Positions 7,761 to 32,981 are shown, counted from the stretch's first letter. The stretch is DNA of 64,000 bases from Acidobacteriota bacterium (GCA_037447115.1 JBBIHH010000004.1:71060-135059); one strand, 5' to 3'. The notes: a model not told the origin generated them from the letters alone. Numbers and translations are program-made.

Positions 7761-7761
7761 G

Positions 7762-16475: not shown

Positions 16476-17432
16476 TTGCGTATGCGGTTTGACCGGAACA
16501 AGTTCATTCTAGCGGTCCGGTGGGCCGTGGCCGTGTTAATCGTTGGTGCCGTGGCCGGTCATTTTGCCCGCCTGCTCGCCCGTTCCGAATTATGGGAGAA
16601 CCCTTTCACGGTTCGACCCCTTTGGATCCTCGGTACGGTCGCTGGATATGGGCTCGCATTTGCGATTTGGGGGGCGTTCTGGGCGCGGTTGCTCCGAGGC
16701 AGGCGCGCCCGAGTTCCGTCTTGGCCAATTGCACGGGCGTACTTTGTGAGCCAGCTGGGAAAGTACGTGCCCGGGAAGGCCTTGGCCATCGTCCTTCGCG
16801 CTCTGTTGATACGCCCGGCGGGCGTGCCATTCCAAATCGCTGCGATCACAGCCGTTTATGAAACGCTCACGGTCATGGCATCGGGATCATTGCTCGCCGG
16901 CGGTCTGTTGCCGCTCGTCGAGATCGGATCGCCCGACCATCACTGGAGAAATCTGGGGCTGCTGGCCCTCGTGGGAATTCCTTTATTACCTGGTATCTTC
17001 AATCGACTCGCACCCCGTGCGGCTCGTCTTTTTATGTCGTCGGATGCCCCGCCGACACCCAGACTGGGATTCGGGGATCTGATCCTCGGACTTGTTCAAA
17101 CCGCCATAGGCTGGTGTTTCCTCGGCTTCAGCCTGCTCATGCTTCTTCGAGCATTCGGCGAGTGGCGATTCTCGCTCGTATCATGCACGGTATTCGTGGC
17201 TTGCTCGTATGTCGCCGGTTTTTTCACGCTCCCAGCCCCAGGAGGTCTTGGCATTCGTGAGGTGCTGTTGCAGCAGCTTCTTGCCGGCGGACTCGGTGAA
17301 TCGTGGGGCGAGGTGAGGGGAGAGGCATTGGCCGTACTCGTCGCACTGTCCCTTCGTTTCTGGTGGACCGTGACCGAAGTCGGGCTCGCGGGTCTGGTCT
17401 ATCTATTGCCACAAGGGACGCGACGACCATGA
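16476..17432 (+). CDS. Lysylphosphatidylglycerol-synthase-TM-region / flippase-like (UPF0104) membrane protein
   Basis: 318 aa polytopic protein with YFVSQLGKYVPGKA and PAPGGLGIRE motifs typical of this family. The sequence is visibly more A/T-rich than its flanks. Confidence 0.6.
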   Translation: MRMRFDRNKFILAVRWAVAVLIVGAVAGHFARLLARSELWENPFTVRPLWILGTVAGYGLAFAIWGAFWARLLRGRRARVPSWPIARAYFVSQLGKYVPGKALAIVLRALLIRPAGVPFQIAAITAVYETLTVMASGSLLAGGLLPLVEIGSPDHHWRNLGLLALVGIPLLPGIFNRLAPRAARLFMSSDAPPTPRLGFGDLILGLVQTAIGWCFLGFSLLMLLRAFGEWRFSLVSCTVFVACSYVAGFFTLPAPGGLGIREVLLQQLLAGGLGESWGEVRGEALAVLVALSLRFWWTVTEVGLAGLVYLLPQGTRRP

Positions 17433-17491: not shown

Positions 17492-17776
17492 CTCGCCCGC
17501 CGTCAGCTGACCGAAGACCGGCCGCACAGCAAGCAGGAACAGCGCGCACGGTCGTGGACCGTGTTATGGAGGAGTTGGCGCGCCAGCTCGAGTCCCCTGC
17601 CCATGAACCCGGGCGCTCGACGCCCCCTCGCTCGCCGGGCTCGTCTTGCTCGCCCTGGCGCTGGTGGCCTGGCTGGCGTGGCTTTGGTATTCTCCGCTGG
17701 CCGGTGTCGGGGGCCGGGGCGCATCCGGAAAGGCCGCGATACCGTGGGGGTCGTCTCCGAAAGCGGGAGAGGAGCG

Positions 17777-18514
17777 ATGGTCAGGAAACGGAACCCGAGC
17801 GAAGCCTTGCCTCCGCCACTCGTGCTGCGCCCTGCGGCCGAGCGCGGCCATCGCCACTATGGGTGGCTCGACACGTGGCACACGTTCTCCTTCGGCGATT
17901 ACCACGACCCGCGGCACATGGGTTTTCGCGCTCTGCGGGTCCTCAACGACGATCGCGTGGCCCCTGGCGCAGGCTTTCCCGACCACCCGCACCGCGACAT
18001 GGAAATCGTCACATACGTTCTCGAAGGAGCGCTCCAGCACCGGGACAGTCTGGGGAACACCTCGGTGATCCGTGCCGGAGAGATGCAGCGCATGAGCGCA
18101 GGCACGGGCGTGGTCCACAGCGAGTACAACCCCTCGCAGGCGGAGCCGGTCCACTTCCTGCAGATCTGGATCGTGCCGGCACGGCAGGGGCTGCCGCCAA
18201 GTTACGAGCAGAGGGCGTTTGCCGAGGAAGAGCGCCGCGGGCGCTTCCGGCTCGTCGCCTCACCCGAGGGCGCCGAACGGTCCCTGATCGTCCATCAGGA
18301 TGCCCGCCTCTACGCCGCGCTGCTGCGCGCGGGCGAGAGAACGACCTACGCCGTCCGGCCCGGCCGCTACGCCTGGGTCCATATCGCCCGCGGGAGAACC
18401 GGTGTGGCAGGCCTGGAGCTATTCGAGGGCGACGGCGTGGCGGTCACGGGTCCGCTGGAGCTCGAGTTCGAAGGGGTCGGGGAGGGGGAAGTCCTGCTCT
18501 TCGACTTGAGCTGA
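17777..18514 (+). CDS. Pirin family protein
   Basis: GWLDTWHTFSFGDYHDP, FPDHPHRDMEIVTYVLEG, HRDSLGN and MSAGTGVVHSE. ATG at 17777 preceded by GGGAGAGGAG. The ORF-track start at 17561 looks over-extended. Confidence 0.9.
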   Translation: MVRKRNPSEALPPPLVLRPAAERGHRHYGWLDTWHTFSFGDYHDPRHMGFRALRVLNDDRVAPGAGFPDHPHRDMEIVTYVLEGALQHRDSLGNTSVIRAGEMQRMSAGTGVVHSEYNPSQAEPVHFLQIWIVPARQGLPPSYEQRAFAEEERRGRFRLVASPEGAERSLIVHQDARLYAALLRAGERTTYAVRPGRYAWVHIARGRTGVAGLELFEGDGVAVTGPLELEFEGVGEGEVLLFDLS

Positions 18515-18523
18515 GGAAGACCG

Positions 18524-19126
18524 ATGAGGAAACCTGCGCGCGCCGACTACGAGATCCACGAGCTGATCCGCGAGCGTTGGAGCCCGCGCGCGTTCTCGGA
18601 AAAGCCCATCGAGGAGCGCGCGCTGCGCTCTCTGCTCGAGGCGGCGCGCTGGGCGCCCTCGTCCTTCAACGAGCAGCCGTGGCGCTTCATCGTCGCCCGG
18701 CGCGAGGACGAAAGAGAGTTCGCGAGGTTGCTGTCGTGCCTGAGCGAGGGCAACCAGCGCTGGGCCCGACACGCGGCCGTTCTGCTGCTGTCCGTGGCCA
18801 GCACCGTCTTCGCGCGCAACGGCAAGCCGAACCGGCACGCCTTCCATGACGTGGGGCTCGCGGCCGCGCACCTCGCGCTGCAGGCCACCGCCCTCGGGAT
18901 CGCCGTGCACCCGATGGCGGGGTTTTCTTGCGAGCGAGCCCGCGAGCTCTACCGGATTCCCGAGGGGTTCGAGCCCGTAGCGGCGATCGCCGCGGGCTAC
19001 CCGGGCGAGCCCGCCGATCTGCCGGACGACCTGCGCGAGCTCGAGCTGCGCGAGCGGTCGCGAAGGCCGCAACCGGAGTTCGTGTTCCACGGCGTGTGGG
19101 GGGAACCCTGGAGGGAGGCTCTGTGA
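18524..19126 (+). CDS. Nitroreductase family protein
   Basis: 200 aa. RWSPRAFSEKPI, LLEAARWAPSSFNEQPWRF and HDVGLAAAHLALQA. Confidence 0.85.
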   Translation: MRKPARADYEIHELIRERWSPRAFSEKPIEERALRSLLEAARWAPSSFNEQPWRFIVARREDEREFARLLSCLSEGNQRWARHAAVLLLSVASTVFARNGKPNRHAFHDVGLAAAHLALQATALGIAVHPMAGFSCERARELYRIPEGFEPVAAIAAGYPGEPADLPDDLRELELRERSRRPQPEFVFHGVWGEPWREAL

Positions 19127-19282
19127 GACGAGCATGGCTTCGACAAGCGACCGTCGCGTGGGTGGGTCGCCCCCCGGTCAAGACCTTCGGCACGATGTAC
19201 GCGGGTACCGACCGGGTCTGCGCGACGCCTGCGGAGTCGCGGCCTACGGCACGATAGGACCTTCCGGCGGCCGTCGCGGGGA

Positions 19283-19489
19283 TCAGTCGGGGGTGTGGCG
19301 GCCGGCGGTTCGCATCGCCTGCGGAATCTTCATGCGCAGGCGAAAGCGGGCCCAGGCGACGATCGCCTCGCGCCAGTCGTCCGCTTCCTCGCGGCTCATC
19401 CGGCCCGCCGTTTCGAGGAGGTCGAGGAGCCGCAGTGCATCCGGGACCTCGACCGGCGTGAGGTACTGCAAGATCTCTTCGCGTCGCAT
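19283..19489 (-). CDS. Hypothetical small protein (68 aa)
   Basis: ORF with balanced, non-Arg-biased composition (MRREEILQYLTPVEVPDALRLLDLLETAGRMSREEADDWREAIVAW...). No recognisable family. Confidence 0.3.
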   Translation of the reverse strand: MRREEILQYLTPVEVPDALRLLDLLETAGRMSREEADDWREAIVAWARFRLRMKIPQAMRTAGRHTPD

Positions 19490-19578
19490 GGCTTAATCAT
19501 ACTACTCGGCGCGGGGCGGTGCGAGGCGAGTCGCTGGCCCATCGTGCCGAGTCGAGTTCCCTCGCTCCCGGCGTTCTT

Positions 19579-19608
19579 ATATTTGTCCGCATCCGGTATT
19601 ACAAATAT
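19579..19608. promoter_or_regulatory. AT-rich perfect inverted repeat (candidate operator) in a divergent intergenic region
   Basis: ATATTTGT (19579-19586), a 14-nt spacer, then ACAAATAT (19601-19608). Lies between the divergent 19489(-) gene and the DUF3311/symporter operon, in an otherwise GC-rich genome. Confidence 0.4.
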
Positions 19609-19718
19609 GCGAGCCGGCGGCCGGTAAGGCCAGGGGAGGAGCTGGCCGCTGGCGGAGGCCTCCCCTGGGCCGCTCGGGGTTGGCAAGGGGGGAGGCTTCG
19701 GGGAAGATGCCCTGCGCC

Positions 19719-19934
19719 ATGAGCGGACGGAGGTTGCGGGACGTGCTGTTCGCGCTCTATGTCGCGCTGTGCGCGCTCTCGCTCACCTGGCCCGGGTATG
19801 CATGGCTCGGCAGCGGCGTCGAGCCCTTCGTGCTGGGCCTGCCCTTCGGCTTCGCGTGGAACGTGGGCTGGAGCGTGGCCACCTTCGCGGCGCTGGTGCT
19901 CTACGAGGCCGCGCGGCGCCGAATGGGGGATTGA
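19719..19934 (+). CDS. DUF3311-like small membrane protein (symporter partner)
   Basis: The two-TM pattern ...LTWPGYAW...VEPFVLGLPFGFAWNVGW... matches DUF3311 proteins found upstream of SSF transporters. The start could be 19707 or 19719. Confidence 0.6.
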   Translation: MSGRRLRDVLFALYVALCALSLTWPGYAWLGSGVEPFVLGLPFGFAWNVGWSVATFAALVLYEAARRRMGD

Positions 19935-19937
19935 GCG

Positions 19938-21419
19938 GTGCCCGCTGCCAGTGCCGTCCTGGCGATCGTGCTGGCCTATCTGGCCCTGAGCCTCGTCGTG
20001 GGCCTCTGGCCGGGCCGGCGCGCGAGCGCCACGGCCGAGGGTTATGTGGCGGGGGACCGCAGTCTCGGTCTCCTGCTGATGTATTTCATCACGGGTGCCA
20101 CGATCTTCAGCGCCTTCGCCTTTCTCGGCGGGCCGGGTTGGGCTTACTCGCGCGGAGCCGCGGCCTTCTACATCCTCGGTTACGGTGTCCTGGGTTTCAT
20201 CCCCTTCTATTTCGTCGGCCCCCGCGCGGCGCGCCTCGGCCGCCGTTACGGTTTCCTCACGCAGGCCGAGATGGTGGCGGCGCGTTTCGACTCGCGCGCC
20301 ATGGCGCTGGCGATGGCGGCGGTGAGCGTCGTCGCTCTCGTGCCGTATCTGGCGCTCCAGATCAAGGGCGCGGGCTACGTGCTCGACACCGTGACGCGGG
20401 GCGCGATTCCGGAGGCGGCCGGCGGGGCGATCGTCTACGGTGTCGTGCTGGTCTACGTGCTCCGCAGCGGGGTTCTCGGCGTGGGGTGGACCAACGCGTT
20501 GCAGGGGATGCTGATGATGGGCCTGGCCTGGGGGCTCGGATTGTACCTTCCGCACCGGCTCTACGGCGGTGTGGGGGAGATGTTCCGGCGCATCGCCGAG
20601 ACACGGCCGGAGCTCCTGCAGCCGCCCGGCCTCGCCGCCGGCGGCGAGGTTTGGGGCTGGGGGGAGTATTCGACGGCCGTGCTCGTTTCCGCCGTCGGCT
20701 TCAGCTTTTGGCCCCATCTGTTCATGAAGGTCTTCACGGCGCGTGACGACGCGACGCTGCGGCGCACCGTCGTGCTCTACCCGACGTTCCAGATATTCCT
20801 CGTGCCGCTGTTCTTGATCGGTTTCTGCGGCGTCCTGTTCGACCCGCCCCCCGAGCGCCCCGATCAGGTGCTGCCCCACATGCTGATGCACATGGACCTG
20901 CCGGCCGTCCTGGTCGGGCTTTTCTGCGCGGGGGCGCTCGCGGCGTCCATGTCCACCGGCGACGCCATGGTCCACGCCGCCGCCGCGATCGCCATCCGGG
21001 ACGGCTGGGCGCGAGGGCTGGGGGCCGCAGTGGATCCCGCCTCGGAGCGCAGGCTGATCCGCTGGGCCGTCGTGGCGGTCATGGCCGCCTCGTATCTCGT
21101 GGCGGTCCTCTACCAGGGATCCCTCGTGCTTCTGCTGCTATCCGCCTACGGGGCGATCGTGCAGTTCGCCCCCGCGGTGCTGGCGGCGCTGTACTGGAAG
21201 CGCGCGCACGGGCGGGCGGTCCTGGCGGGGATGATCGCGGGGTCGGCGGCGACGCTGCTGCTTACCGCCCGCCCGGAGCTTCGGCCCTGGCCCCTGCACC
21301 CGGGTGCCTACGGTCTCGCCCTTAATGTCGGCGTGCTGCTGCTGGGCCGCGCGAAAGCGGCCGAGCCGCGGCGGGAGGTCTCGGAGTTCCTGCGCGTCGC
21401 CGCGGGAAGATTGGGCTAG
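19938..21419 (+). CDS. Sodium:solute symporter family (SSF) transporter
   Basis: 493 aa polytopic protein. N-terminal ...YVAGDRSLG..., GGPGWAYSRG, and about 13 hydrophobic segments. Starts 3 nt after the small partner gene. Confidence 0.8.
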   Translation: MPAASAVLAIVLAYLALSLVVGLWPGRRASATAEGYVAGDRSLGLLLMYFITGATIFSAFAFLGGPGWAYSRGAAAFYILGYGVLGFIPFYFVGPRAARLGRRYGFLTQAEMVAARFDSRAMALAMAAVSVVALVPYLALQIKGAGYVLDTVTRGAIPEAAGGAIVYGVVLVYVLRSGVLGVGWTNALQGMLMMGLAWGLGLYLPHRLYGGVGEMFRRIAETRPELLQPPGLAAGGEVWGWGEYSTAVLVSAVGFSFWPHLFMKVFTARDDATLRRTVVLYPTFQIFLVPLFLIGFCGVLFDPPPERPDQVLPHMLMHMDLPAVLVGLFCAGALAASMSTGDAMVHAAAAIAIRDGWARGLGAAVDPASERRLIRWAVVAVMAASYLVAVLYQGSLVLLLLSAYGAIVQFAPAVLAALYWKRAHGRAVLAGMIAGSAATLLLTARPELRPWPLHPGAYGLALNVGVLLLGRAKAAEPRREVSEFLRVAAGRLG

Positions 21420-21960
21420 GGGGGCTCGGAGCGAGGTGCGAGCCCGCGAGAAAGCGGCGGCCCGCGGGGGATCTCCACCGCGGCCAGATCCCCGTGCTGG
21501 CAGCGCTCGTCCGGGGTTCTGCCGCGCGGGGAAAGGGTTCCCCATACACCCCTGCGCCGCGGAGCCGCTGTCGCAGGAGGACCTCGAGGAGCTTCGGGTG
21601 TTCTGGCTCGGGCGCCGCGACTTCCAGGCGCGCTTCGTGCTGCGCCACCCCTGGAGCGGCGAGCCCCTCTGCCCGGAAGCCTGGGCCTACGCGAGGGAGC
21701 TCGGCGAGCGCTACGAGCGGCAGGCACGAACCCTCGCCAGCCTCACCGGCTGGAACATCGAGGCGATACGCCGCAAGATGCGGGAAGCGGGCGACGGCGC
21801 GGCCGGGGATTGCTTGCCCCCCCGCCCTGATGGCGGCCGCTGTGGCCCTTGGCCGGTCCCGGACCGGAGCGAGGCACCTCCCTTCGTGCTCGAGCTCTTC
21901 CGGGACCGAGGGCGATCCCCGTCCCAGCCCCCTCCTGCGCAGGAGCGGGGCGCAGGTGCC

Positions 21961-24675
21961 TCACGGGCAGGCCGCGGTGTTCTGCTGCGGCCTGCAAGCC
22001 GCCGTCGCGGCCGGTCGCTCCTGCCCTGCGCCGTCCGTGCCGTAGCTTCCTTCGAAGCTCGGGTCGTGGGCCACGACGAGGAAGTAGCGGTCGCCCCCCT
22101 GGGGCGTGATCGTCGCCGAGGGGGCCCCGCCGCTGGAGCAGAGGTTGGCCTCGTGGCTGTACCAGTTTCCCAGCGCGCCTTCGTACACCGCGTAGTCCGT
22201 CCCGTCGCCGCACGTCGGTCCCCAGCTCAGGTCGAGATCGATTCCGTTCGGGTTCTTGGCAACAGTCAGCCAGCCTGTGATTTTCCCTGGCGCGGCGCTC
22301 GGTGGGAGGGGGGAATTCGTGCGCATGCCGAGGCGCAGGTTGGCGAGCGGTGCTTGAGGCGCGAAGGCCGCGTAACCGAACAGCCACGAACTCCCGGCGG
22401 CGCTCACCGCTGGGGTATCCTCGGGCTCGCTCGTCTCCGCGACCGCGAAGTTCTCGGGATCCGTCACGCTCCCGTCCGCCGCCACGCGCGCCGCGAAGAG
22501 ATCGCCCCGGTGCTGCTTGGGATAGGGTTCGTTGCGGTGGTCCACCCAGGTGACCACCCACTGCGTGCCGTCCCAGCCCGCGGCGGGAAGCGCTTCCCGC
22601 ACGGTGCCGGAGGAGATCCGGATGCCTGCCGCGCTGTCGAGGAGGGTTCCGTCGGCGAGCACGCGGCGCCCGAAAATGCGGTCGTGTTGCCAGACCACCA
22701 GGGCCGTGTCGCCGCCGACGGCGAGATGCGGCCGGTCCCGATGGCCGCCATCGCAGCAAGCCGAGATATCGAACTTGGTCTGCAGCAACCCGTCCTGGCC
22801 GATGAAGGCGCCGACGATCCTCGAGCGCGGGTTGTCGTGGGTGACGTTTTGCTCCCACACGGCGAACCAGCGGCTGCCGAAGGCGGTCACCCGCGGCCAC
22901 ACGTCGAAGTTCTGCCCGATGCGCTGGCGAGGCCCCAGGACGTTGCCGCTCGTGTCCACGCGGATGGCGTAGGCGTAGCGGATGTCGAGGCTGACGTCGT
23001 TGTCCGTGCCGACCACGAGGAACATCCCGTCGAGGCCCGCGACGTCGGGCATCTGTCCCGGCATGATCGGAAAAGGCGCCGCGTCGAGACGCGCGCCATC
23101 CGCCCCGAGGCGCCGGCCGTAGATCGTGCCGCGGCCCTCGCGCGTGCGCTCCCACACCACGAGATAGCGCGAACCGTCCCAGCCCGCAGCCGGGGTCGTG
23201 AGATCGGTCTCGCCGTTGCCCCCGGCGACGAGGATCGGTTCCGGGTCGATCGGGTCGCCGTTGGCGTCGAGCCGCTGGGCCATCACGAAGGTTTCTTCCG
23301 ACGCCTCGCGCACGAAAACGACCAGGTGGTTCGTGCCGTCGAAGGCGAAGCGGGGGCGGCTCTGGCGGGGCGCCCCAAGACTCACCGCGGCGGGGGTTCC
23401 AGCCTGGCCATCGGCGCCGACCACGATGCGCTGGATGTCGTCGCGGTCGCGCTGCGTCAGGACGACGCCGGAGGGGGCGCCCGGGGCGAGCGCCACTTCG
23501 GCACCGGAGTCGGCGACCTTGTGGGGCTGGCGTTCCGCCAGCGTCCCGTTGGTGCGCACGCGCCTGACGAACACGTCCGCGTCCACGGGGGCGAGGCTCA
23601 GTTGCTGCGCGTAGCCCACGAAGTAGTAGGACCCGTCCCACGCCACGTCGGGCTCGAACGTCGTGTAGCCACCGTCCTCGACGAGGGCGATCCCGCCCGG
23701 ATCGAGCACCGCGCCCTCGGCGCTGACCCGGGAGCCGTAGAGCTGGGAGAATCCGAAGTAGCGACCCTCGTGCCAGGCGACGAAGAACGCGCTGCCGTTC
23801 GAGGCGACCGCAGGGTTGTCGGGATCGCTCGGGCTGTAGAGGTTGATGGTGAACGGTTCGCCGATCGGGTCGAGCGCCGTGTCGAGCAGCTGTCCCCGAA
23901 TCACCTTGTCCAGGGAAAGGTCCGCCTCTCGCCACACCATGAGGTAGCGTCCCGCGGCGAAGGCCAAATCCGCTTTCTGCGGATCCGAGTTCCAGGTGTC
24001 GCGCCTGAGTGGCCGGCCCCCGGGATCGAGGACGGTACCGTCGGCGGCCACCCGGGCGCCCTCGATCGTGTAGACCGACGTCGCGGCGTCCAGGTCGCGC
24101 CAGGCGACGATCCAGCGGGTCCCGTCGCTGGCCGCGCTCCAGGGCCGCGAGTCTGCGGAGGGCTGGTCCCCTCGATGGACCAGGATCGGCGTGCCGTCGA
24201 GCACCGCGCCGTTCGGCGCCACGCGCAGGCCCAGGACGTCCACGAAGTTGCCGTGCTCGCGCTCCGCGGCCCAAACGACGAGCCAGTTCTGGCCGTTCCA
24301 GGCCGCCTGGGGCGCGTACTGGTGATAGTCCTCCCGGGAGAGAAGGATCGGTGTCGTGTCGAGCAGGTTGCCTTCGTTGTCGAGGCGCGCCGCGTAAACG
24401 TCCGTCATCGTGCCCCGGCCCTCGCCTTCGTAGGTCGTCCCCGGGCCGCCGGGCACCACGAGCGACGACCGCCGGTCGGCCCAGACCACGAGGTAGCCGT
24501 TGGCGCCGCGCGAGATGCGCGGCCGTTCCTGCGTTTGAGCGGCTGCGCGCGGCGTGCTGTCTCCCGGAAGGAAGAAAGGATCCGCGAGTGGAGGGGACTC
24601 GGCGATGGCCGGCCCGGCGCTCCCGAGGATCTCGATCGCGACGGCGAGACCCGAACCCGACCGGCCGACGGCCAT
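21961..24675 (-). CDS. Secreted repeat protein: about 14 repeats of about 55 aa (likely beta-propeller) plus a Cys-containing C-terminal beta-sandwich-like domain
   Basis: The recurrent unit fits the pattern P.vA.dG..(Y/W)LVVW......(D/E)(V/I)YG.RV..dG..LD. Examples are GYLVVWADRR...DVYAARLDNEGNLLD, NWLVVWAAE...LGLRVAPNGAVLD and RYLVVWERT...IYGRRLGADGARLD. N-terminus ...GLAVAIEILGSAGPAIA/ESPP. Alternative GTG start at 24711. The ORF-track start at 25770 is over-extended. Confidence 0.7.
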   Translation of the reverse strand: MAVGRSGSGLAVAIEILGSAGPAIAESPPLADPFFLPGDSTPRAAAQTQERPRISRGANGYLVVWADRRSSLVVPGGPGTTYEGEGRGTMTDVYAARLDNEGNLLDTTPILLSREDYHQYAPQAAWNGQNWLVVWAAEREHGNFVDVLGLRVAPNGAVLDGTPILVHRGDQPSADSRPWSAASDGTRWIVAWRDLDAATSVYTIEGARVAADGTVLDPGGRPLRRDTWNSDPQKADLAFAAGRYLMVWREADLSLDKVIRGQLLDTALDPIGEPFTINLYSPSDPDNPAVASNGSAFFVAWHEGRYFGFSQLYGSRVSAEGAVLDPGGIALVEDGGYTTFEPDVAWDGSYYFVGYAQQLSLAPVDADVFVRRVRTNGTLAERQPHKVADSGAEVALAPGAPSGVVLTQRDRDDIQRIVVGADGQAGTPAAVSLGAPRQSRPRFAFDGTNHLVVFVREASEETFVMAQRLDANGDPIDPEPILVAGGNGETDLTTPAAGWDGSRYLVVWERTREGRGTIYGRRLGADGARLDAAPFPIMPGQMPDVAGLDGMFLVVGTDNDVSLDIRYAYAIRVDTSGNVLGPRQRIGQNFDVWPRVTAFGSRWFAVWEQNVTHDNPRSRIVGAFIGQDGLLQTKFDISACCDGGHRDRPHLAVGGDTALVVWQHDRIFGRRVLADGTLLDSAAGIRISSGTVREALPAAGWDGTQWVVTWVDHRNEPYPKQHRGDLFAARVAADGSVTDPENFAVAETSEPEDTPAVSAAGSSWLFGYAAFAPQAPLANLRLGMRTNSPLPPSAAPGKITGWLTVAKNPNGIDLDLSWGPTCGDGTDYAVYEGALGNWYSHEANLCSSGGAPSATITPQGGDRYFLVVAHDPSFEGSYGTDGAGQERPAATAACRPQQNTAACP

Positions 24676-24938
24676 GCGGATTTTCTCGAGAAAAGAAGCT
24701 CTGCCCCTCACAACGGCACCCCCCGCTTCACCCGGCGGAAGAGAAAAGAGCTTCCTCGTGCCGCTTTGATACCTGGGGGCGAGGCTTTCCGGACGCCTGC
24801 CGGGTTCGCGCTCCCCGCGGAGCGTCCCCCTCCCAGGCAAGCTGTCCTCGCGTCGCGCACTCGAGCGCCCGAACCCCGCTTCCGGGACCCGGGCGCGCCA
24901 TGCGGGACGAAAGAAGAAAACCCCTGGCGCCGCCGGCT

Positions 24939-25676
24939 TCAGTTGGCTTCGACGACCAGGTAGAACGCCAGATCGGGAGAGGTCGTGTCCGTCAAGCTCG
25001 TCGCGGTCGTCGCCGGGGCGAGGTTGGTCGGTACGGGCATGGCGGGGGTCGTGTCGCGAAACACGTTCCACGGTCCGACGCCGCCCGTCCACTGGAGCAC
25101 GGGGTTCAAGTTCGCGTCCTTGTTGAGTAGAAGCTGGATCGGGCTCACGACCGTCAGCGTGCCGTTCATCGTGTCGAAGGGCGGGTTGTGGTGGAGCCGG
25201 CAGATGAAAGGATAGGCCGCCGGTGCGACGGCGGCGTAGTGGCACACGCTCCACTCCAGAGGGCTGTCGATGTTCCCCGTCTCCCAGTCGCACGGTGGCG
25301 TGATATTGGTGCTGGTGCAGGCGTCCGCTTGGTTGCATCCGCTCCCTGTGGTCACCTCCGTCGAGGAGTGCCACGGCGTGATGTCGCTCTTGTGCCAGCG
25401 GATGCACTGGAAATTCCAGGGAACCCCGGGTGTTGCGCTCTCGCCTTCGATGCGCGGGTTTTGAGGGACGAACGCCGTCGGGTTCGTCATCTCGACCGTG
25501 ATGAATCGCGGCGAGGCGATGTTCTGGCACTGGACCGGAAGATTGGGGTTGCCGGCGGCGTCCTTGCCCACGGCGCAGTTGCTGGTCTTGCAGGTCGTCG
25601 TCTGAGCGAGCGCGGCGGGCGAGCCGAGCCCGCCGGCAAGGTAGAGACCGAAGAGAACGATCGCGGCACGGCGCAT
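24939..25676 (-). CDS. Secreted cupredoxin-like (putative type-1 copper) protein with C-terminal extra domain
   Basis: Signal peptide MRRAAIVLFGLYLAGGLGSPAALA/Q. YPFICRLHHNPPFDTMNGTLTVV fits the cupredoxin ligand-loop pattern Y.F.C..H...M.G.L.V. Many Cys in the N-terminal half. Confidence 0.6.
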   Translation of the reverse strand: MRRAAIVLFGLYLAGGLGSPAALAQTTTCKTSNCAVGKDAAGNPNLPVQCQNIASPRFITVEMTNPTAFVPQNPRIEGESATPGVPWNFQCIRWHKSDITPWHSSTEVTTGSGCNQADACTSTNITPPCDWETGNIDSPLEWSVCHYAAVAPAAYPFICRLHHNPPFDTMNGTLTVVSPIQLLLNKDANLNPVLQWTGGVGPWNVFRDTTPAMPVPTNLAPATTATSLTDTTSPDLAFYLVVEAN

Positions 25677-25833
25677 GGGACCCCTCCCGGTAGCGGAAAC
25701 CGATCTCGACAACCGACCCTATACCCCCCCGATTCCCTCCCCGGGTGCGAGAGGGGGGACAGTGATGCACCTGAGAGGCGTGCGTTCCCGCCGCGGGCCT
25801 AGCGCGGGCTCGGGTCGGGTGAGATAAGGATCC

Positions 25834-27156
25834 TCAGGCAGGCAGGCCGTCCCGCAACACCGCCGTTACGGCCTCCGAGAAGCGGTCGAGCTCTTCGGGT
25901 GTGGTGTAGACGCTCGGGCTCACGCGTACCCCTCGCACCTCCTCGTGTTGGATGGCGGTGGTGAGGATGCGGTGCCGGTGCCACAGATGCTCCACCAGGG
26001 CGACCTCGTCCACGCCTTCGATGTGGAACGTGGCGATGCCGCAGGAAAAGCGCGGATCGAGGCTCGTGAGCAGGCGCACCCGATCGTGCTCCCGCAAGCG
26101 TCGCGCCCACAAGTCCCGCAGGTAGCGCAACCGGGCCGCCTTGCGCTCCGCCCCGAGACCCTCGTGGAACGTCAGGGCGTCGGCGATGGCCAGCGCCGGA
26201 GCGGCTGGGTGCGTGCCGATCTCCTCGAACTTGCGGATGTCCTCCTCCATCCCCTCGGGCGGGGGCATCAGGGCCCACAGATCGCGGATCTTCTCCCGCC
26301 GCACGTAGAGCATCCCCGTTCCCACGGGTGCGAACAGCCACTTGTGCAGGCTCGTGGCGAAGTACTCGCAGTCGAGATCGTCTCGGGTGAAGGGAAAGTG
26401 CGCGAAGGAATGCGCCCCGTCGACGATCACCGGGATCCCGTGCCGGCGCGCCATCTGCACGATCTCGCGCACGGGGAGGATCTGCCCGGTGAGGTTGATC
26501 ACGTGGCTCGCGAGGATCGTGCGCGTGCGCGGGGTGATGGCCTCCTCGAAGCGGCGCACGACCTCGGCCGGATCCTCGGCGGGTACGGGGATCTGGATCG
26601 TGCGCAGGACGGCTCCCTCGCGCCGCTCCCGCTGGCGCCACGCCTGCACCATGCGCGGGTAGTCCTGGGTCGTCGTCAACAGCTCGTCGCCGCGGCGGAC
26701 GTCGAAGCCGAGCTGGCAGATGTGGAGACCTTCCGAGGCGTTGCGGGTGATGGCGACCTCCTCGGCCTCGCAACCCAACAGGCGCGCGAGCCGGGCGCGG
26801 ACGGTTTCCTTCTGGGGCTCCAGGATCTTCCACATCGTGTGGGCGGGGGCAAGGTTCGAGATGTCGAAGTAGCGCTTGAAGGCCTCGGCGGCGCCGCGCG
26901 GGCAGGGCGACACGCCGCCGTTATTGAGGTTGACGATCGAGCGGTCCACCGGGAAGGCCTGCTGCGCGTGGCTCCAGAACGCCTCGTCGCGGGCGATCGT
27001 GTCCGGGTCGCCCGGTGTGGCGGCGAGCTCGCGGGCGATCGCCGCGGCGCGCGGCACGAGCCACGGCCCGACCGCCGCCGCCAGCACGGGGTAGTGCAGG
27101 TGCGCGAGGAAGGCCCGCCGCGTCGGGACGGCGATCTCAGCGGATGGGCGTTTCAT
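25834..27156 (-). CDS. Class-V aminotransferase-fold PLP-dependent enzyme (isopenicillin-N-epimerase/cysteine-desulfurase-like) with Tat-type signal
   Basis: 440 aa. N-terminus ...VPTRRAFLAHL + hydrophobic stretch + AIA. Body has ITRNASEG, DGAHSF and ATSLHKWLFAPVGTGMLY (PLP lysine context). Confidence 0.75.
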   Translation of the reverse strand: MKRPSAEIAVPTRRAFLAHLHYPVLAAAVGPWLVPRAAAIARELAATPGDPDTIARDEAFWSHAQQAFPVDRSIVNLNNGGVSPCPRGAAEAFKRYFDISNLAPAHTMWKILEPQKETVRARLARLLGCEAEEVAITRNASEGLHICQLGFDVRRGDELLTTTQDYPRMVQAWRQRERREGAVLRTIQIPVPAEDPAEVVRRFEEAITPRTRTILASHVINLTGQILPVREIVQMARRHGIPVIVDGAHSFAHFPFTRDDLDCEYFATSLHKWLFAPVGTGMLYVRREKIRDLWALMPPPEGMEEDIRKFEEIGTHPAAPALAIADALTFHEGLGAERKAARLRYLRDLWARRLREHDRVRLLTSLDPRFSCGIATFHIEGVDEVALVEHLWHRHRILTTAIQHEEVRGVRVSPSVYTTPEELDRFSEAVTAVLRDGLPA

Positions 27157-28609
27157 TCGGGACCTCCCCGGGCCGCGAGCCCGGCGTGGCGAGACTCACG
27201 ATCACGACCATCGCCGCGCTGATCGCAGCGCTCGCGGCCTTGATGTCCAGGATCGCGTTCAGTCCCGGCGCATGCCGCCAGGCAATCGCCGAGACCATGC
27301 CGCCCAACATCCCCGCCAGCACCCCCCAGCGGCTCGTCCCGCGCCACCAGAGGGCGAACAGCAGCGGCGGTCCGAAAGACGACCCGAGCCCCGACCAGGC
27401 ATAGGCCACCATCGTGTCGATCAGCTCGGAGCCCTCGAGGGCGAGCCAGGCGAGCCACAGCGCCACCCCTGCGATCGCCAGCGTGGCGAGGCGCGAGAGC
27501 AGCACCAGCCGCTCCGGCCGCTCCCGCGGCCGGAAAAGCCGAACATAGATGTCCTCCACCAGCGTCGAGGTCGCGACGAGGAGCTGGCTATCCGCCGTGG
27601 ACATCATCGCCGCGGTCGCTCCGGAGATCATCACGCCCGCGAGCCAGCCGGGCAGCAGCGTCTTCGCGAGCAGGGGCATCACCTGCTCGTGGTCCGGGAG
27701 GTCGGGCCCCAGGACCGCCACGCCCACGATGCCGATGAAGGGTGCGCCCCAGTAGGAAAGAAGCACCCAGCCCATGGCGATCAGGCCCGCCTGCCGGAGT
27801 TCCGAGGTGCGGCGGATGGCCATGTAGCGGGTCAGCAGATGGGGCTGGCCGAGGTAGCCCAGGCCCCAGGAAAGCCCGCCCACCGCGACGCCCAGGAGGA
27901 ACGCGGAGCCGGTCTTGCCGCCGTCCATCGCCAGAAAGCCGGGCCCCCTCGCGGCCATGGCCTGCGCCAGCGCGTCGAAACCGCCCAGGTGGGCGAGGCC
28001 CACGAGCGGCAGCACGACGGCCACGAAGGTCATCAGCAGACCCTGGATCAGGTCGGTGAAGGCCACCGCCAGGAAGCCCCCCATCAGCGTGTAGAGCACG
28101 ACCACGCCCGCGCCGACGAGAATCCCGTAGCGAGGGTCGAGGCCGAACGTGGCATGCAGGATCTTGCCTCCCCCGTGGAACTGGGCCGCGACATAGGCGG
28201 TATAGAAGACGAGAATCGCGACCATCGACACGAGCCGCAGCAGGCGCGTGCGGTCGCCGAACTTGAGCTCGAAGTAATCGGGCAGGGTCAGCGCACCGAG
28301 CCGCCCGCTCTCGCGCCGCAGCGGGATGGCGATGAAGGTCCACGAGGCGAGAATCCCGAAGCCGATCCCGATGACGGACCAGAACTCCGTGAACCCCAAA
28401 CCGTAGGCCGCTCCAGGCAGCCCCAGCAGAAACCAGGCGGACTCGCCTGAGGCGCGCTCGGAGATCGCCGAAACCCAGGGGCCGAGCCGCCGCCCGCCGA
28501 GGACGAAGTCGTCGAGGGATTTCATGGAGCGCCAGCAGAACAGCCCCACGCCCAGCATGACGCCCAGGTAGATCAGCAAGCCCGCGACGATCTGGGGATC
28601 GGCGCTCAA
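27137..28609 (-). CDS. Sodium:solute symporter (PutP-like)
   Basis: DFVLGGRRLGPWVSAISERASGESAWFLLGLPGAAY is the SSF/PutP N-terminal signature. A TTG start at 28609 overlaps the stop of the upstream micro-ORF. The 3' end overlaps the PLP gene start by 20 nt. Confidence 0.85.
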   Translation of the reverse strand: MSADPQIVAGLLIYLGVMLGVGLFCWRSMKSLDDFVLGGRRLGPWVSAISERASGESAWFLLGLPGAAYGLGFTEFWSVIGIGFGILASWTFIAIPLRRESGRLGALTLPDYFELKFGDRTRLLRLVSMVAILVFYTAYVAAQFHGGGKILHATFGLDPRYGILVGAGVVVLYTLMGGFLAVAFTDLIQGLLMTFVAVVLPLVGLAHLGGFDALAQAMAARGPGFLAMDGGKTGSAFLLGVAVGGLSWGLGYLGQPHLLTRYMAIRRTSELRQAGLIAMGWVLLSYWGAPFIGIVGVAVLGPDLPDHEQVMPLLAKTLLPGWLAGVMISGATAAMMSTADSQLLVATSTLVEDIYVRLFRPRERPERLVLLSRLATLAIAGVALWLAWLALEGSELIDTMVAYAWSGLGSSFGPPLLFALWWRGTSRWGVLAGMLGGMVSAIAWRHAPGLNAILDIKAASAAISAAMVVIVSLATPGSRPGEVPNETPIR

Positions 28610-28707
28610 TCGTTCCCCCGACCGCGGTTGAAGCGGTAGGCGACGAGGGTCAGGACCGCCAGGAGGAGCCACGAACCCACGACCAGGAGCGATGTCATGG
28701 CCGGCAT
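28606..28707 (-). CDS. Symporter small accessory membrane protein (33 aa; below the ORF-track cutoff)
   Basis: MPAMTSLLVVGSWLLLAVLTLVAYRFNRGRGND has one TM helix plus a basic tail. Its stop overlaps the symporter TTG start (ATTGA). Confidence 0.5.
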   Translation of the reverse strand: MPAMTSLLVVGSWLLLAVLTLVAYRFNRGRGND

Positions 28708-28846
28708 GGAACGCGGATTATACGGGAGGAAGCGCCCACTCCGTCAGGGCTGGCGGGAGGCCGGCCGCCGCGCTAACCTGTCGGGGACCGGCGGGCTCGC
28801 TCCGAGCGAGCCCGGTCCTCGAGACTGCGAAAAAGGAGGGTTGGCC

Positions 28847-29224
28847 ATGAGGAAAATGCTGGGGAGCGCCTTGGCGCTACTGCTCGTGGCGGGGCTGGTC
28901 GTGGCCGCGCCCGGCGGCCAGGAGAAGAAGGAGGGCAGCGAGCAGGCGTCGTCGCCGCAGACGGTCTGGGAGGCTTCCGAGCTTCCCGAAGGCCAGGCGA
29001 AGGCCGTCATCGCCGTTTCGGGCATGACGTGCGGGAAGTGCTGCGTGTCGGTGGAGCAGGCTGTCACGAAGCTCGAGGGCGTGGTCGCCGTGAAGGCGGA
29101 CTACGAGAAGGGCATCGCGAAGGTCATCTACCAGACGGACAAGGTCAAAGTCGAGGACATCGTCAAGACCATCAACGAGAAGACGAGCTTCAAGGCTTCG
29201 CTGCCGCAGAAGCAGGTCGGCTGA
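28847..29224 (+). CDS. Periplasmic heavy-metal-associated (HMA) domain protein (MerP/CopZ-like with signal peptide)
   Basis: ATG at 28847 follows AAAAGGAGGG. Signal peptide MRKMLGSALALLLVAGLVVAAPG. HMA motif SGMTCGKCCVSVEQAV with the beta-alpha-beta-beta-alpha-beta remainder. Confidence 0.85.
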   Translation: MRKMLGSALALLLVAGLVVAAPGGQEKKEGSEQASSPQTVWEASELPEGQAKAVIAVSGMTCGKCCVSVEQAVTKLEGVVAVKADYEKGIAKVIYQTDKVKVEDIVKTINEKTSFKASLPQKQVG

Positions 29225-29256
29225 GCGGCCCCGCCGGCAGCCGTCCTGAAGCGTGA

Positions 29257-29282
29257 GGGCCGGCCGCGCGCCGGCCCTTTTT
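29257..29282 (+). terminator. Rho-independent terminator after the HMA gene
   Basis: GGGCCGGC-CGCGC-GCCGGCCC (8-bp GC stem) followed by TTTTT. Confidence 0.8.
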
Positions 29283-29502
29283 GTCTCGTGCCGGGACCAG
29301 AACGGGCCCGTTTTTCCCGGCGGAACCGGCCCCGGCTTTGCTCGCGACGGGAGGCCACCCGCGCGGCGGAGGCTCGCGGCCCCCGGCTCGCCCTGCGGGA
29401 GAGGGGAGCGCTTGCCGCCCCCCGGGCGGCGCGGCAAGCGAGGGTGAGGCGCCGCCGCGCATGCCGTGGTAGAATCGAGACCAGGCAAGCCGAGGATCGG
29501 GG

Positions 29503-30123
29503 ATGCGCCGCGTGCTCGCACTGATGGCCGTCGGTTGCGCCGTCCTCGCGGCGCAGGCCGCGACCGAGCTCAGCGTGGAGGAGCTGATCGCGCTTCACCG
29601 CGCGGGCCTGAGCGAAGAGACGATCCTCCAGTACGTGGACAAGTACGACATCTGCGTTCCCCTGGGCCCGGCAGACCTGGTGGCGATGGCCGACGCCGGG
29701 GTTCCCGAGACGCTGATCCAGGCGCTCGTGGGAAAGATGGCGGGCTGCGAGGCGGGCGAATCGAGCGCGGGCAAGCGAGCGGGCCGCGGCCGCACCTATG
29801 GGTTCGCTCGGCCCGGTTACTACTACGGCCCGGTCTGCTGCCCAACTCCGTACTACGTGTACGATCCCTTTTTCTACGACCCGTTCTTCTTCAGCTTCGG
29901 CTTCGCCGTCGTCCACGATCCATTCTTCTTGCATCCCCATCGTCACCACCACGGGTTCTTCCATCACCACCACGGGTTCGGTGTGCACCCGCGCCGGGTC
30001 GGGACGGGGGGCCCGGCGCTGAGGACGCGCCCGCCCGGCGGCAGTCCGGCCGGTGGCGCGAGGCTAGCCCCCGGGGCTTCCGGCTCGCGTACCGCCCGCT
30101 CCGCCCGCCCGCGCGGACGCTGA
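29503..30123 (+). CDS. Secreted hypothetical protein with tandem helical motif and aromatic/His-rich C-terminal half
   Basis: Signal peptide MRRVLALMAVGCAVLAAQA. Two copies of an L..aG(l/v)(s/p)EE/ET(i/l)(l/i)q motif. Then YYYGPVCCPTPYYVYDPFFYDPFFFSFGFAVVHDPFFLHPHRHHHGFFHHHHGFGVHP. Confidence 0.6.
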   Translation: MRRVLALMAVGCAVLAAQAATELSVEELIALHRAGLSEETILQYVDKYDICVPLGPADLVAMADAGVPETLIQALVGKMAGCEAGESSAGKRAGRGRTYGFARPGYYYGPVCCPTPYYVYDPFFYDPFFFSFGFAVVHDPFFLHPHRHHHGFFHHHHGFGVHPRRVGTGGPALRTRPPGGSPAGGARLAPGASGSRTARSARPRGR

Positions 30124-31593
30124 CGCGTCCGGCTCCGCAACTCCCCCTCCGGACAGAGCCGCTTGGCGCCGGCCCGGCGCCGGCAGCATCTCCACCTCGG
30201 TCGTCAGCTTGAGCGGGGGCTCTTCCGGAGCGGACCCGGCATAGGTGACCTCCACCAGGAAAGCCCGGCAGCCCGCAGCGGGCGGCGGGACGCGCACTCG
30301 AACCTGCCCTCCAGGTTCGGCTTTCAGAAGTCGGCTCTCCCACCGGGGTCCCAGCGTCTCCAGGCGGAAATCGCAACCGGCGGGATTCGTCGCCTGCCAG
30401 AGCTGGATCTGTGCGGGCGGCTCCGGCAGGCGCACTTCGAGCACACCCGGCGCGGGCCGGACCCAGGTGGGCTCCGCGGGGAGCCGGCCGTCGAGCAGGC
30501 GCCGGTAGAAGGCCGCGATGCTCTCGTGCGCGTCGGAACCGTCGAGCGAATGGTCCGCGTTCGGGACGTAGCGCAGGTACTTGGGGCTGGGCAGGTCCGC
30601 GAAGTAGAAGCGGGAGGAATCGGGCAGGAAATAGGCGTCGCCCGTGGCGTTCACGACGTACTTGGGCATCGTGTAGCGCGCTCGGTAGGCATAGGGATCC
30701 ACGATCGCGCGCAGGCGGGCGAAGGCTTGCGTGCCGAACCAGTCGGGGATGCCCAAGGCGACGTACTCCTCGATGGCGGGCGACCAGAAGCCGTAGACCT
30801 CGCGATGGTGGCGGAAGGAGACCTCGAGGTTGAGACAGTCGATGACCACGGGGATGAGGGCCGCGACGCGCCGGTCCGCGGCCGCCGCGGTCCACGCCGT
30901 CCAGCCGCGCTTGGAGCTGCCGGTGACGACGAAGCGCTCCACCGCGATCCCGAGCGTGTCGCGCGCGTAGATCTCGATGGCGTCCATGGCGCGCACGGCG
31001 GCCTTCGTCATGGGCAGGCGCGGCAGCCAGGTGGCGTCGCCGGTGCGCAGGAAGCGGTCCCAAGCGTAGGCGATCAGCTCGTCTTCCCGGCGGGGCCGGC
31101 CCTCGCCGGCGAACTCGAGCGGCTGGTTGGGCACCATGCGCAACTCCGCCACCAGGCTGCCCGTGACTCGCGCGATCCCGGCCAGAAGCGGGTGCGGCGG
31201 CGGGGCCGGCTGCCCGCGGTCGCCCCCGGCGATGCGCAGCAGCGCCGTGGAATGGCGTACCGCGGAGGGCACGTACAGGACGAGCCAGTGAGTCCAGAGC
31301 GTCCGCTGCACCTCGTGCGATTCGCGCCAGCGCTGGGAGTCCATCTCCAGCCAGTGGACCGCGACGTCGCCGAGCGAGCGTGTCTCGAGGGCCGCGAAGC
31401 GGAACTCGGGGTCGGGACGAGCGACGTAATCGTCGAGCGGCGTCCGCTCCTGTGGCGCGTTCGTGGGCAGCGGCCCGCCGGCACACGCGGCGAGCACGAC
31501 GCCCAGCGCGACGCGACATGCCGCTTTTCCTTTCCGGATCCGGCGGGCCGACGACCCTGGGCCCGCGCCGCGTGGCGCGAGAAAACGGGGCAT
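30064..31593 (-). CDS. PhoPQ-activated pathogenicity-related (PqaA) family lipoprotein
   Basis: Start ATG at 31593; the ORF-track start at 32175 is over-extended. Lipobox VVLAAC. WTHWLVLYVP, VTGSSKRGWTAWTAAA, VIDCLNL and YVPNADHSL resemble the PhoPQ_related family. Confidence 0.7.
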   Translation of the reverse strand: MPRFLAPRGAGPGSSARRIRKGKAACRVALGVVLAACAGGPLPTNAPQERTPLDDYVARPDPEFRFAALETRSLGDVAVHWLEMDSQRWRESHEVQRTLWTHWLVLYVPSAVRHSTALLRIAGGDRGQPAPPPHPLLAGIARVTGSLVAELRMVPNQPLEFAGEGRPRREDELIAYAWDRFLRTGDATWLPRLPMTKAAVRAMDAIEIYARDTLGIAVERFVVTGSSKRGWTAWTAAAADRRVAALIPVVIDCLNLEVSFRHHREVYGFWSPAIEEYVALGIPDWFGTQAFARLRAIVDPYAYRARYTMPKYVVNATGDAYFLPDSSRFYFADLPSPKYLRYVPNADHSLDGSDAHESIAAFYRRLLDGRLPAEPTWVRPAPGVLEVRLPEPPAQIQLWQATNPAGCDFRLETLGPRWESRLLKAEPGGQVRVRVPPPAAGCRAFLVEVTYAGSAPEEPPLKLTTEVEMLPAPGRRQAALSGGGVAEPDASASARAGGAGGTRAGSPGG

Positions 31594-31598
31594 GTCCT

Positions 31599-32981
31599 CT
31601 ATATCGTGGCATGCCTCCGGGCCTGCGCCAGCGCGCGCTCGGGACGGTCCCATCCGGGGGCGATGCGCAAAGCTCGCGCGAGGGGCTCGATCGCCTCCTC
31701 GGTTCGCCCGACTTCCAGGAGCAGCTCGCCGCAGCCGCACCATGCCCAGGGATCGGCCGGGTCGCGCCGCAGCCCCTGGGCGTAGGCCCGCAGGGCTTCC
31801 AGCGGTCGTCCCCGCCTGCGCGCCAAAGCCGCGGCGACGATCCACGGGGCCGCGCCTCCTTCGTCCGCCGCGAGGGCTTTTTGCAGCGCTCGCTCCGCGC
31901 GTTCGAGCTTTCCCAGCGCGAGCAAGAACTCCGCCGCTCGCGCCGGGGCGATCGTGGTCACGAGACCCGGCTCGCTGACCAAGCCCCCGTCCCGTGCGGG
32001 GCGCTCGGCGCACGCCAGCGCCCGCGCCGCCGCGCGCTCCAGGCCTGGCCTCCCGCCTTGCGCTTCGAGGTCCGAGCGCAGCAACTCCAGCGCCGCCCCG
32101 CGGTCGTCCGAGGTTCCGAGAAGCCGGCGCGCCAGCTCCAGCCGCCCTTCGCCCAGACGCGCCGCCGCGCACCAACGCACCGCCTCGACCGCCAGCGGCG
32201 GGGACAGCCGGAGGAGGCCCTCCTCGAGCGCCTGAAGCTCTCCAGCGGCGTCGCGCAGGCGCAGGCCCGGCACCGCCCGATTCCCCACGAGCGGCACGAG
32301 CTCGCGAACGACGAAGAAGCGGAGCGCTGGATCGGCCGGTCGGGCGCGCAAAGCATCGCGCAAGAGCTTCAGGTTGCGCTCCCGCTTCGCTGCCAACCGC
32401 TCCGTGCGCGGGTCGTAGCCGTCATGGCCGACGACGAGCCCGGAAGCGCGCGGCGCGATCGACGCCGCGCCGAGCCGAGCGGCGATAGCCGGGACGATCT
32501 GCTCGTGGATCGCGCCGCGATAGCGGTACTCTGGGCGGCATCGAAACAGGCGCACGAGCGGGTAGCGGCGGCACGGCCGTCCGCCCGCCCGGTCCACGAT
32601 CTCCACCGTCAACGCCTCTTCGCCACAGCGGGCGAGCCAACGCCGAAAAGCCTCCGGCGGCGGCGCCTCTTCGAGCCATTCGTCCGCGTCCACAACGAGC
32701 GCGTACGCCCCCCGAGCGGCCCGAAGCGCCGCATTGCGAGCTTCGGCGAAGTCGTCCCGCCAGGGATGGCTGAAGACACGCGCCCCGAGCCGCCGCGCGA
32801 CGGCGGCCGTGGCGTCGCGCGAACCGGTGTCCGCCACGACGATCTCGTCCACGTAAGCCCGCACGGACTCGATGCAGCGCGGGAGGTTCGTTTCTTCGTC
32901 GCGGACGATCATGCACAGGCTGAGCAAGGGCTGCGGCACAGGACGAGCCGGCAGCAACGGGGATGCCAAGCGACCCTCCAC
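31599..32981 (-). CDS. Family-2 glycosyltransferase with C-terminal TPR-like region
   Basis: LSLCMIVRDEETNLPRCIESV...IVVADTGSRDAT...DDFAEARNAAL...LVVDADE is a GT2 domain. The C-terminal half is Ala/Leu/Arg-rich helical repeats. The exact start is uncertain (GTG at 32981 or internal). Confidence 0.75.
   Translation of the reverse strand: MEGRLASPLLPARPVPQPLLSLCMIVRDEETNLPRCIESVRAYVDEIVVADTGSRDATAAVARRLGARVFSHPWRDDFAEARNAALRAARGAYALVVDADEWLEEAPPPEAFRRWLARCGEEALTVEIVDRAGGRPCRRYPLVRLFRCRPEYRYRGAIHEQIVPAIAARLGAASIAPRASGLVVGHDGYDPRTERLAAKRERNLKLLRDALRARPADPALRFFVVRELVPLVGNRAVPGLRLRDAAGELQALEEGLLRLSPPLAVEAVRWCAAARLGEGRLELARRLLGTSDDRGAALELLRSDLEAQGGRPGLERAAARALACAERPARDGGLVSEPGLVTTIAPARAAEFLLALGKLERAERALQKALAADEGGAAPWIVAAALARRRGRPLEALRAYAQGLRRDPADPWAWCGCGELLLEVGRTEEAIEPLARALRIAPGWDRPERALAQARRHATI

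Follow-up and report, generated by a model that had tools for sequence, protein, structure and literature searches.

Type-1 copper proteins hold their metal with two His, one Cys and one Met, and the corresponding PROSITE pattern is PS00196 (PMC517927). Plastocyanin, amicyanin and auracyanin are proteins of this kind, the GH74 enzymes and Elp2 are built as tandem seven-bladed propellers, and the C-terminal domain (CTD) of the type IX secretion system (T9SS) ends many unrelated secreted proteins. These are the closest described counterparts of the products of two neighbouring genes, here called A and B, in a stretch of 64,000 nucleotides from an Acidobacteriota bacterium (GCA_037447115.1, JBBIHH010000004.1:71060-135059), referred to below as the window. 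In our reading, A probably encodes a type-1 copper protein and B a propeller of an unnamed family, as independent genes for exported proteins that came to lie next to each other by chance. The two genes and the spacer between them are as follows.

24939..25676, minus strand: gene A, a 245-amino-acid (aa) predicted secreted cupredoxin–fibronectin type III (FN3) protein, supported by its open reading frame (ORF) and translation, third-position guanine–cytosine (GC) content, a gene call in a second assembly and 29 homologues
21961..24675, minus strand: gene B, a 904-aa predicted secreted 14-blade propeller protein, supported by its ORF, third-position GC content, more than 1,658 homologues and an AlphaFold2 model
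24676..24938, minus strand: spacer between A and B, 263 nucleotides, checked for terminators, promoters, Rfam families and folding

Gene calls and genomic contexts of homologues

The window has a GC content of about 70%, and long spurious ORFs therefore overlap on both strands. Third-position GC (0.87 in A and 0.89 in B) marks both genes as coding, and no coding-type codon-position GC was seen in a 1,219-aa plus-strand ORF or an 843-aa minus-strand ORF that overlap them. A 1,269-aa ORF at 21961-25770 consists of gene B and open frame upstream of it, with gene A in a different frame. When genes were called independently in a Logan assembly of this DNA, identical products of 245 and 904 aa and an equal gap of 263 nucleotides came out, so that the two same-strand genes described in the initial annotation of the window are borne out. 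Every peptide quoted there was found in the translations, including YPFICRLHHNPPFDTMNGTLTVV (A residues 155–177), the LVVW and RV..dG..LD repeat motifs of B and its C-terminal DLDLSWGPTCGDG...EGSYGTDGAGQERP.

Homologues of A were located at L001, L002–L005 (one context), L010, L011, L012, L093 and L094, making about seven contexts, and orthologues of B at L006/L007, L008, L009, L095 and L096, making about five. Within flanks that spanned 2–10 kb overall, and 6–10 kb around the A homologues where the contig was long enough, a B-like ORF was present at 0 of 10 A-homologue loci (tblastn, family hidden Markov model (HMM) and repeat HMM) and an A homologue at 0 of 6 B-orthologue loci. Both families occur in the Acidobacteriota metagenome-assembled genome (MAG) GCA_037446795.1, with the A orthologue on JBBIHW010000051 (L011) and the B orthologue on JBBIHW010000088 (L009), and in metagenome 3300035183 the A and B orthologues lie on separate contigs of 13 kb and 16 kb. 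The neighbours of A vary among loci, and those of B are all different. Since their relatives are not adjacent elsewhere, A and B probably do not form a working pair. The initial annotation had suggested an extracellular redox or binding pair and had itself named a lack of conserved neighbourhood as evidence to the contrary; with adjacency in 0 of about 12 independent homologue contexts, that suggestion is not supported, and we do not consider the pair worth pursuing as a system.

At three of the A-homologue loci, three HlyD/CzcB_C-like membrane-fusion genes and a MacB/FtsX gene lie upstream of the A homologue (L011, 2001-5813; L093, 887-5860; L094, 1066-5867). At L011, ORFs of 511, 438 and 922 aa around the A orthologue resembled the gene order of the window, but Pfam identifies them as fragments of a MacB/FtsX permease, and codon-position GC is wrong for the 922-aa ORF; synteny was therefore rejected.

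Protein A

Gene A encodes the following segments.

25605..25676, minus strand: signal peptide, residues 1–24, with predicted cleavage between ALA and QTTTC, from the sequence and the N-terminal pattern in 22 homologues
25146..25604, minus strand: cupredoxin domain, residues 25–177, with extra Cys at 29, 34, 50, 91, 114, 120, 129 and 145, from the AlphaFold2 model, Foldseek and the invariant ligands
25146..25214, minus strand: putative type-1 copper ligand loop YPFIC159RLH162HNPPFDTM170NGTLTVV, from hhalign to plastocyanin, PDB profile matches and a spacing survey
24942..25145, minus strand: divergent C-terminal FN3 domain, residues 178–245, from the AlphaFold2 sandwich and transitive profile matches

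Searches among 5.8 billion proteins recovered 29 relatives of A, mostly 240–270 aa long and mostly 49–60% identical, one of which carries the Joint Genome Institute (JGI) label "plastocyanin". So far, members of this family have come from MAGs of Acidobacteriota and from metagenomes, including soil ones. In an alignment of 22 of these proteins (A1; 48–60% identity), H103, C159, H162 and M170 are invariant. The upstream product had been described as Cys-rich, and A1 agrees, with eight conserved Cys beyond the ligand C159: positions 29, 34, 50, 91, 120, 129 and 145 are invariant, and C114 hardly varies. All 22 members have a hydrophobic N-terminus ending in A-x-A directly before an invariant Gln (Q25), and the N-terminus of A reads as a canonical Sec signal, with predicted cleavage between ALA and Q.

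When the family profile was compared with PDB sequences, nearly all matches were plastocyanins, pseudoazurin and auracyanin; they are weak (E 0.04–1.2), and all of them align on the loop "PgtYtFyCtpHksanMkGtLtV". An hhalign comparison with poplar plastocyanin gave a probability of 78% and placed C159, H162 and M170 on C84, H87 and M92, with "NPP" of the window protein as an insertion. The spacing between His and Met is four residues in 18 of the 22 family members, six in two and seven in two (the window protein and P0003), so that the window loop has a 3-residue insertion relative to most homologues. The prevalence of the four-residue spacing makes the long loop a minority variant and not a property of the family; the unusually long loop of the initial annotation is thus real in the window protein and overstated as a general feature. 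The length of this loop may tune the redox potential in cupredoxins. The spacings of four, six and seven residues in this family may offer a natural series for redox tuning.

The AlphaFold2 model of A has a predicted local distance difference test score (pLDDT) of 78.7 and a predicted template-modelling score (pTM) of 0.69. The top Foldseek matches in PDB, at probability 1.00, are auracyanin A (2aan), plastocyanin (2w88, template-modelling score (TM-score) by target (TMt) 0.67) and amicyanin (1aaj, TMt 0.66), further matches include pseudoazurin, rusticyanin and CuA domains, and the top 14 are all cupredoxins, CuA domains included. In the model, H103 stands at the start of strand 102–107, after a 5-residue loop behind strand 91–96, a placing that parallels H37 in the plastocyanin segment "KIVFKNNAGFPH37NIVF". 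By this position in the model, H103 is most likely the fourth, N-terminal copper ligand. The fold match, the four invariant residues and the alignment to plastocyanin agree with the initial assignment of A as a cupredoxin-like protein with the type-1 ligand set.

With plastocyanin, amicyanin and auracyanin, A shares the Greek-key beta-sandwich, the Sec signal and the invariant upstream His, and most members of its family share with plastocyanin (YSFYCSPHQGAGMVGKVTV) a Cys-x2-His-x4-Met loop followed by M.G.lTV. In contrast to these proteins, the cupredoxin domain of A is about 50 residues larger and has an extended N-terminus and an insert further inside, which carry eight conserved Cys, and A adds a C-terminal FN3 domain, lacks a Pfam match, fails PS00196 and has the seven-residue loop spacing in the window protein.

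The C-terminal domain of A, residues 178–245, is modelled as a six-strand beta-sandwich with pLDDT above 90. An exhaustive HMMER search with this segment (A3) of 1.84 billion representatives returned 102 proteins, many of them giant, with 5–34 tandem copies. In P0287, P0290, P0283 and P0312 the matched stretches fall on Pfam fn3, which by transitive homology makes the C-terminus of A a divergent FN3 domain. Like FN3 (PF00041), it is a small beta-sandwich; it differs from it in being shorter (about 68 aa), in lying below Pfam detection by itself and in having its own conserved motifs GGVGPW and FYLV.E.N.

The chain encoded by A would run from a Sec peptide through a plastocyanin-like cupredoxin domain to a short C-terminal FN3 domain. 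Copper would be held by H103 together with C159, H162 and M170 of the C-terminal loop, and the eight further Cys would presumably form four disulfides. Most likely, A carries single electrons within the periplasm or the cell envelope, with the FN3 domain as a possible spacer or docking element. A literature search on this architecture found nothing.

Protein B

The N-terminus and the repeat region of B are placed as follows.

24601..24675, minus strand: putative signal peptide, residues 1–25, atypical, proposed from the clear Sec signals at this position in orthologues
22300..24567, minus strand: 14 repeats of about 47–70 aa, residues 37–792, from the repeat alignment, repeat HMM, AlphaFold2 model and PDB matches

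The repeats of B average about 53 aa, with the consensus P.va.dG..yLVVW......diyg.Rv.adG.vLD. With an HMM built from these repeats, the significant copies number 14 in B and 13 in orthologues (14–15 counted in all), in line with the roughly 14 repeats first reported for the downstream product. The AlphaFold2 model, built with 59 homologues (pLDDT 88.8, pTM 0.84), consists of beta structure throughout: as far as residue 792 each repeat contributes about four strands, and a smaller beta domain of lower confidence follows at 803–870. The best global PDB matches, at 8–11% identity, are the GH74 structures 6p2k (TM-score by query (TMq) 0.46, TMt 0.52) and 2cn3 (0.44 and 0.51) and Elp2 (6qk7_B; TMq 0.42, TMt 0.48); both kinds of match are tandem seven-bladed propellers. 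The double seven-bladed propeller of the initial annotation is in keeping with the 14 blades, the all-beta model and the 7+7 architecture of the best matches, the split itself being the part that is deduced.

B has the two-propeller architecture with 14 four-stranded blades in common with GH74 and Elp2. It differs from them in lacking any sequence-level relationship (8–11% identity), in being an extracellular protein of bacteria that carries an accessory domain at its C-terminus, and in its blade motif P.va.dG..yLVVW..diyg.Rv.adG.vLD, which sets it apart as a family of its own. In its logic, this motif is presumably nearer to blades of the PD40/TolB type.

No match to B was found in Pfam or NCBIfam, and the family profile returned nothing meaningful from PDB sequences; the initial annotation had likewise assigned neither the repeat nor the C-terminal module to a characterised family, and the Pfam and NCBIfam searches place neither A nor B in a curated one. 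Of 8,000 candidates scored, more than 1,658 proteins passed at E ≤ 1e-3, which makes the B family a large one. Its full-length orthologues (51–58% identity), which have clear Sec signal peptides, number about a dozen, and the remainder have only a core of about 750 residues in common (36–47% identity). No Pfam annotation is recorded on this core in any B homologue. The annotated parts are all accessory and comprise FlgD_ig/T9SS tails, S-layer homology (SLH), dockerin, BACON, FN3, FG-GAP, Calx-beta and TIG domains. The named sources include Pyrinomonadaceae, Chloroflexia/Chloroflexota, Candidatus Eisenbacteria and Chthoniobacterales. Among 59 diverse homologues, some non-repeat residues show no variation or almost none, for example R69, D92, Q119 and H613-D614 (in THDNP).

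The core probably folds as 14 four-stranded blades in two seven-bladed propellers, and across phyla it is fused to interchangeable C-terminal modules for surface attachment or secretion. B would then most likely be a surface-displayed, ligand-binding propeller, possibly one that binds or processes glycans.

The terminal four-Cys domain of B

The last segment of B is a separate domain.

21964..22293, minus strand: C-terminal four-Cys domain, residues 795–904, from alignment A4, profile searches and a metagenome scan

The Cys-containing domain that had been noticed at the end of the downstream product corresponds to residues 795–904 and has four invariant Cys. Its motif, DYAVYEG..G.W..H....C...RYFLVV....EGSYG.d..G.eRP....C......CP-end, is conserved in orthologues; besides the four Cys, alignment A4 shows conservation of DY.VYEG, RYFLVV, EGSYG and ERP and of the end ...C......CP. 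A profile search with the domain gave 437 short proteins or fragments, and examples among them join it to GlxA/galactose-oxidase-like, FG-GAP and InhA/M36-like segments, always ending in ...CP.

Scanning of metagenomes yielded 286 confirmed relatives, and the analysis went on with the best 80 loci (L013–L092). In these best 80 of 286, the domain lies at most five residues from the ORF end in 81 of 85 ORFs. A Pfam search on 42 such ORFs, for the best 25 families, found many unrelated passenger domains (Laminin_G_3, FG-GAP, GLUG, M36 and M10 peptidases, Kelch, sulfatase and YHYH, and further GSDH, LDL-B propeller, SpoIID, BNR and NosD), and no Pfam family covered the terminal domain in these 42 ORFs. 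The domain itself was unmatched in Pfam, NCBIfam and PDB, and matches of the B C-terminal profile to Csy1 in PDB were set aside as chance-level. At L071, L021 and L028, two to three consecutive genes each end in a four-Cys domain. Clustering of the neighbours at the 80 loci revealed no recurrent sortase-like or secretion gene that could act as partner machinery; Ser/Thr kinases and a Reg_prop histidine kinase/LuxR pair do recur near four-Cys loci and were rejected as implausible machinery.

In B homologues of other phyla, T9SS, SLH and dockerin modules stand at the same position, which makes a role in surface retention or export reasonable. In this lineage, the four-Cys beta domain of about 100 residues takes that position in B and would mediate retention or export of the protein. 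Tentatively, it might be an undescribed C-terminal domain by which soil bacteria akin to Acidobacteriota sort proteins or anchor them to the cell surface, a functional counterpart of the T9SS CTD, SLH and dockerin, although we would put this below an even chance. Like the T9SS CTD, it is a beta domain of about 100 aa at the end of many unrelated secreted proteins, and T9SS CTD, SLH and dockerin hold its position in distant B homologues. It differs from these modules in having four invariant Cys and no homology to PF18962, PF13860 or the NCBIfam sorting-domain models.

Alternative interpretations

A number of observations count against the reading of A as a type-1 copper protein, B as a propeller and the two as independent genes of exported proteins. 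A gave zero matches to Pfam and NCBIfam at E ≤ 1. Its model is of moderate confidence (78.7), with pLDDT 61–73 in the Cys-rich inserts. PS00196 (PMC517927) matches 0 of the 22 family members, because their C-R-L-H has no Pro or Gly ahead of the His. H146 is also invariant in A1 and is a rival candidate for the fourth ligand. As for B, TM-scores of 0.42–0.52 are consistent with a 7+7 split without proving it, and no ligand or catalytic site was identified. At its own N-terminus, the export signal is weak and has a Glu inside the hydrophobic core, and the signal peptide is therefore only putative; of the export signals initially attributed to both proteins, the canonical Sec signal of A and the clear ones of the B orthologues stand, and that of B itself is the weak element. 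Finally, A and B share a strand, no terminator can be recognised in the spacer, and hhalign detects a weak similarity between their C-terminal profiles (probability 46%, E 2e-4).

A functional extracellular pair, in which the propeller binds a substrate or partner and the cupredoxin passes electrons, the genes being co-transcribed and the proteins perhaps co-localized via their C-termini, would account for these last points. It would also fit the short distance of 263 nucleotides, a spacer with no terminator-like or sigma-70-like site, the export of both proteins and the co-occurrence of the two families in at least one other Acidobacteriota MAG. The interval 19000-30000 had no Rfam match, and folding just past the A stop codon was unremarkable (z-score 0.65). 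Co-transcription of A and B may occur in this organism, which would not amount to a conserved system. As for the C-termini, that of A is an FN3 domain and that of B a four-Cys domain, and HMMs of the two, run on the six-frame ORFs of the window, each find their own protein alone and do not cross-match. The module that the initial annotation thought the two proteins might share is thereby reduced to the weak profile similarity; the two C-termini may have a sandwich fold in common, which does not establish a common module (comparisons of both profiles with a single human FN3 sequence had no power and were discarded). The absence of A–B adjacency from all of the roughly seven A and five B contexts argues against a pair, as do the different contigs of the MAG that has both families, a B family about 50 times larger and far more widely distributed than that of A, and the lack of a recognisable redox cofactor motif in B. 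We therefore regard a functional pair as very improbable.

Different roles are also conceivable for each protein alone. A could be a copper-handling cupredoxin for resistance or as a chaperone, like CopI-type periplasmic proteins, working with envelope efflux instead of carrying electrons. Its homologues at L011, L093 and L094 lie directly downstream, on the same strand, of the three membrane-fusion genes and the MacB/FtsX permease, and an ORF with an HMA domain lies 3 kb from A in the window. However, the CzcB_C matches are weak, the membrane-fusion/MacB context is found neither in the window nor at L001–L005, A lacks any metal-scavenging stretch rich in His or Met, and what is conserved in it is precisely the classic set of type-1 residues for electron transfer, so that copper handling appears unlikely. 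B, for its part, could be an enzyme and not a passive binder, such as a glycoside hydrolase or lyase with its site in a cleft between the propellers, as in GH74 xyloglucanases. GH74 enzymes have the highest TM-scores against B, the non-repeat residues listed above are conserved, and BACON and dockerin modules, which occur on B relatives, are typical of carbohydrate-active proteins. On the other side, the sequence of B resembles neither GH74 nor any chain in PDB, and non-enzymatic Elp2 and WD40 double propellers fit it about equally well. Membership of GH74 is not supported: sequence searches of Pfam and PDB gave no match, and the structural alignment shows 11% identity. An enzymatic role is possible but doubtful. 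The most plausible assignment remains an electron-carrying type-1 copper protein and a ligand-binding propeller, encoded by independent genes.

Surroundings in the window

The following genes flank the A–B region.

19938-21419, plus strand: sodium:solute symporter (SSF) gene
25834-27156, minus strand: class-V aminotransferase gene, immediately upstream of A
27137-28672, minus strand: sodium:solute symporter (SSF) gene
28697-29224, plus strand: HMA-domain ORF, 175 aa

No HMA neighbour was found at the other A-homologue loci with annotated genes, and the proximity seen in the window is therefore probably coincidental. The chromosomal context of the window is housekeeping. NADH:quinone oxidoreductase genes (NuoG-like, NuoL/M-like) occupy 1-9225, GT2 glycosyltransferases 31599-37086 and a flagellar cluster (FliD, sigma-54 activator, FliF, FlgE) 44026-63882. 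ORFs without a Pfam match lie at 47974-50184 (plus strand), 29891-31612 (minus strand), 17554-18849 (plus strand) and 29503-30123 (plus strand), the first and last of which show coding-like third-position GC. An LPG_synthase_TM ORF lies about 4.5 kb from B at 16476-17432. At L096 the B orthologue stands just downstream of a cytochrome oxidase cluster (COX1/COX3/COX4/COX2-like) and near an LPG_synthase gene (901-4877 and 9690-12212). The occurrence of LPG_synthase near B at both loci may be remnant synteny or chance.

Implications

With A, the blue-copper family would gain an architecture with an FN3 fusion and many putative disulfides, which the present Pfam and PROSITE models do not detect. 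In B, a double-propeller core of about 750 residues, present in more than 1,600 extracellular proteins, constitutes a sizeable gap in the domain databases, and the four-Cys terminal module on diverse secreted proteins is a second one. If the tentative sorting role of the latter is true, the domain would be in use on secreted enzymes and binding proteins of dozens of unrelated kinds. Defining the B core and the four-Cys domain would allow better annotation of the secretomes of poorly studied soil phyla.

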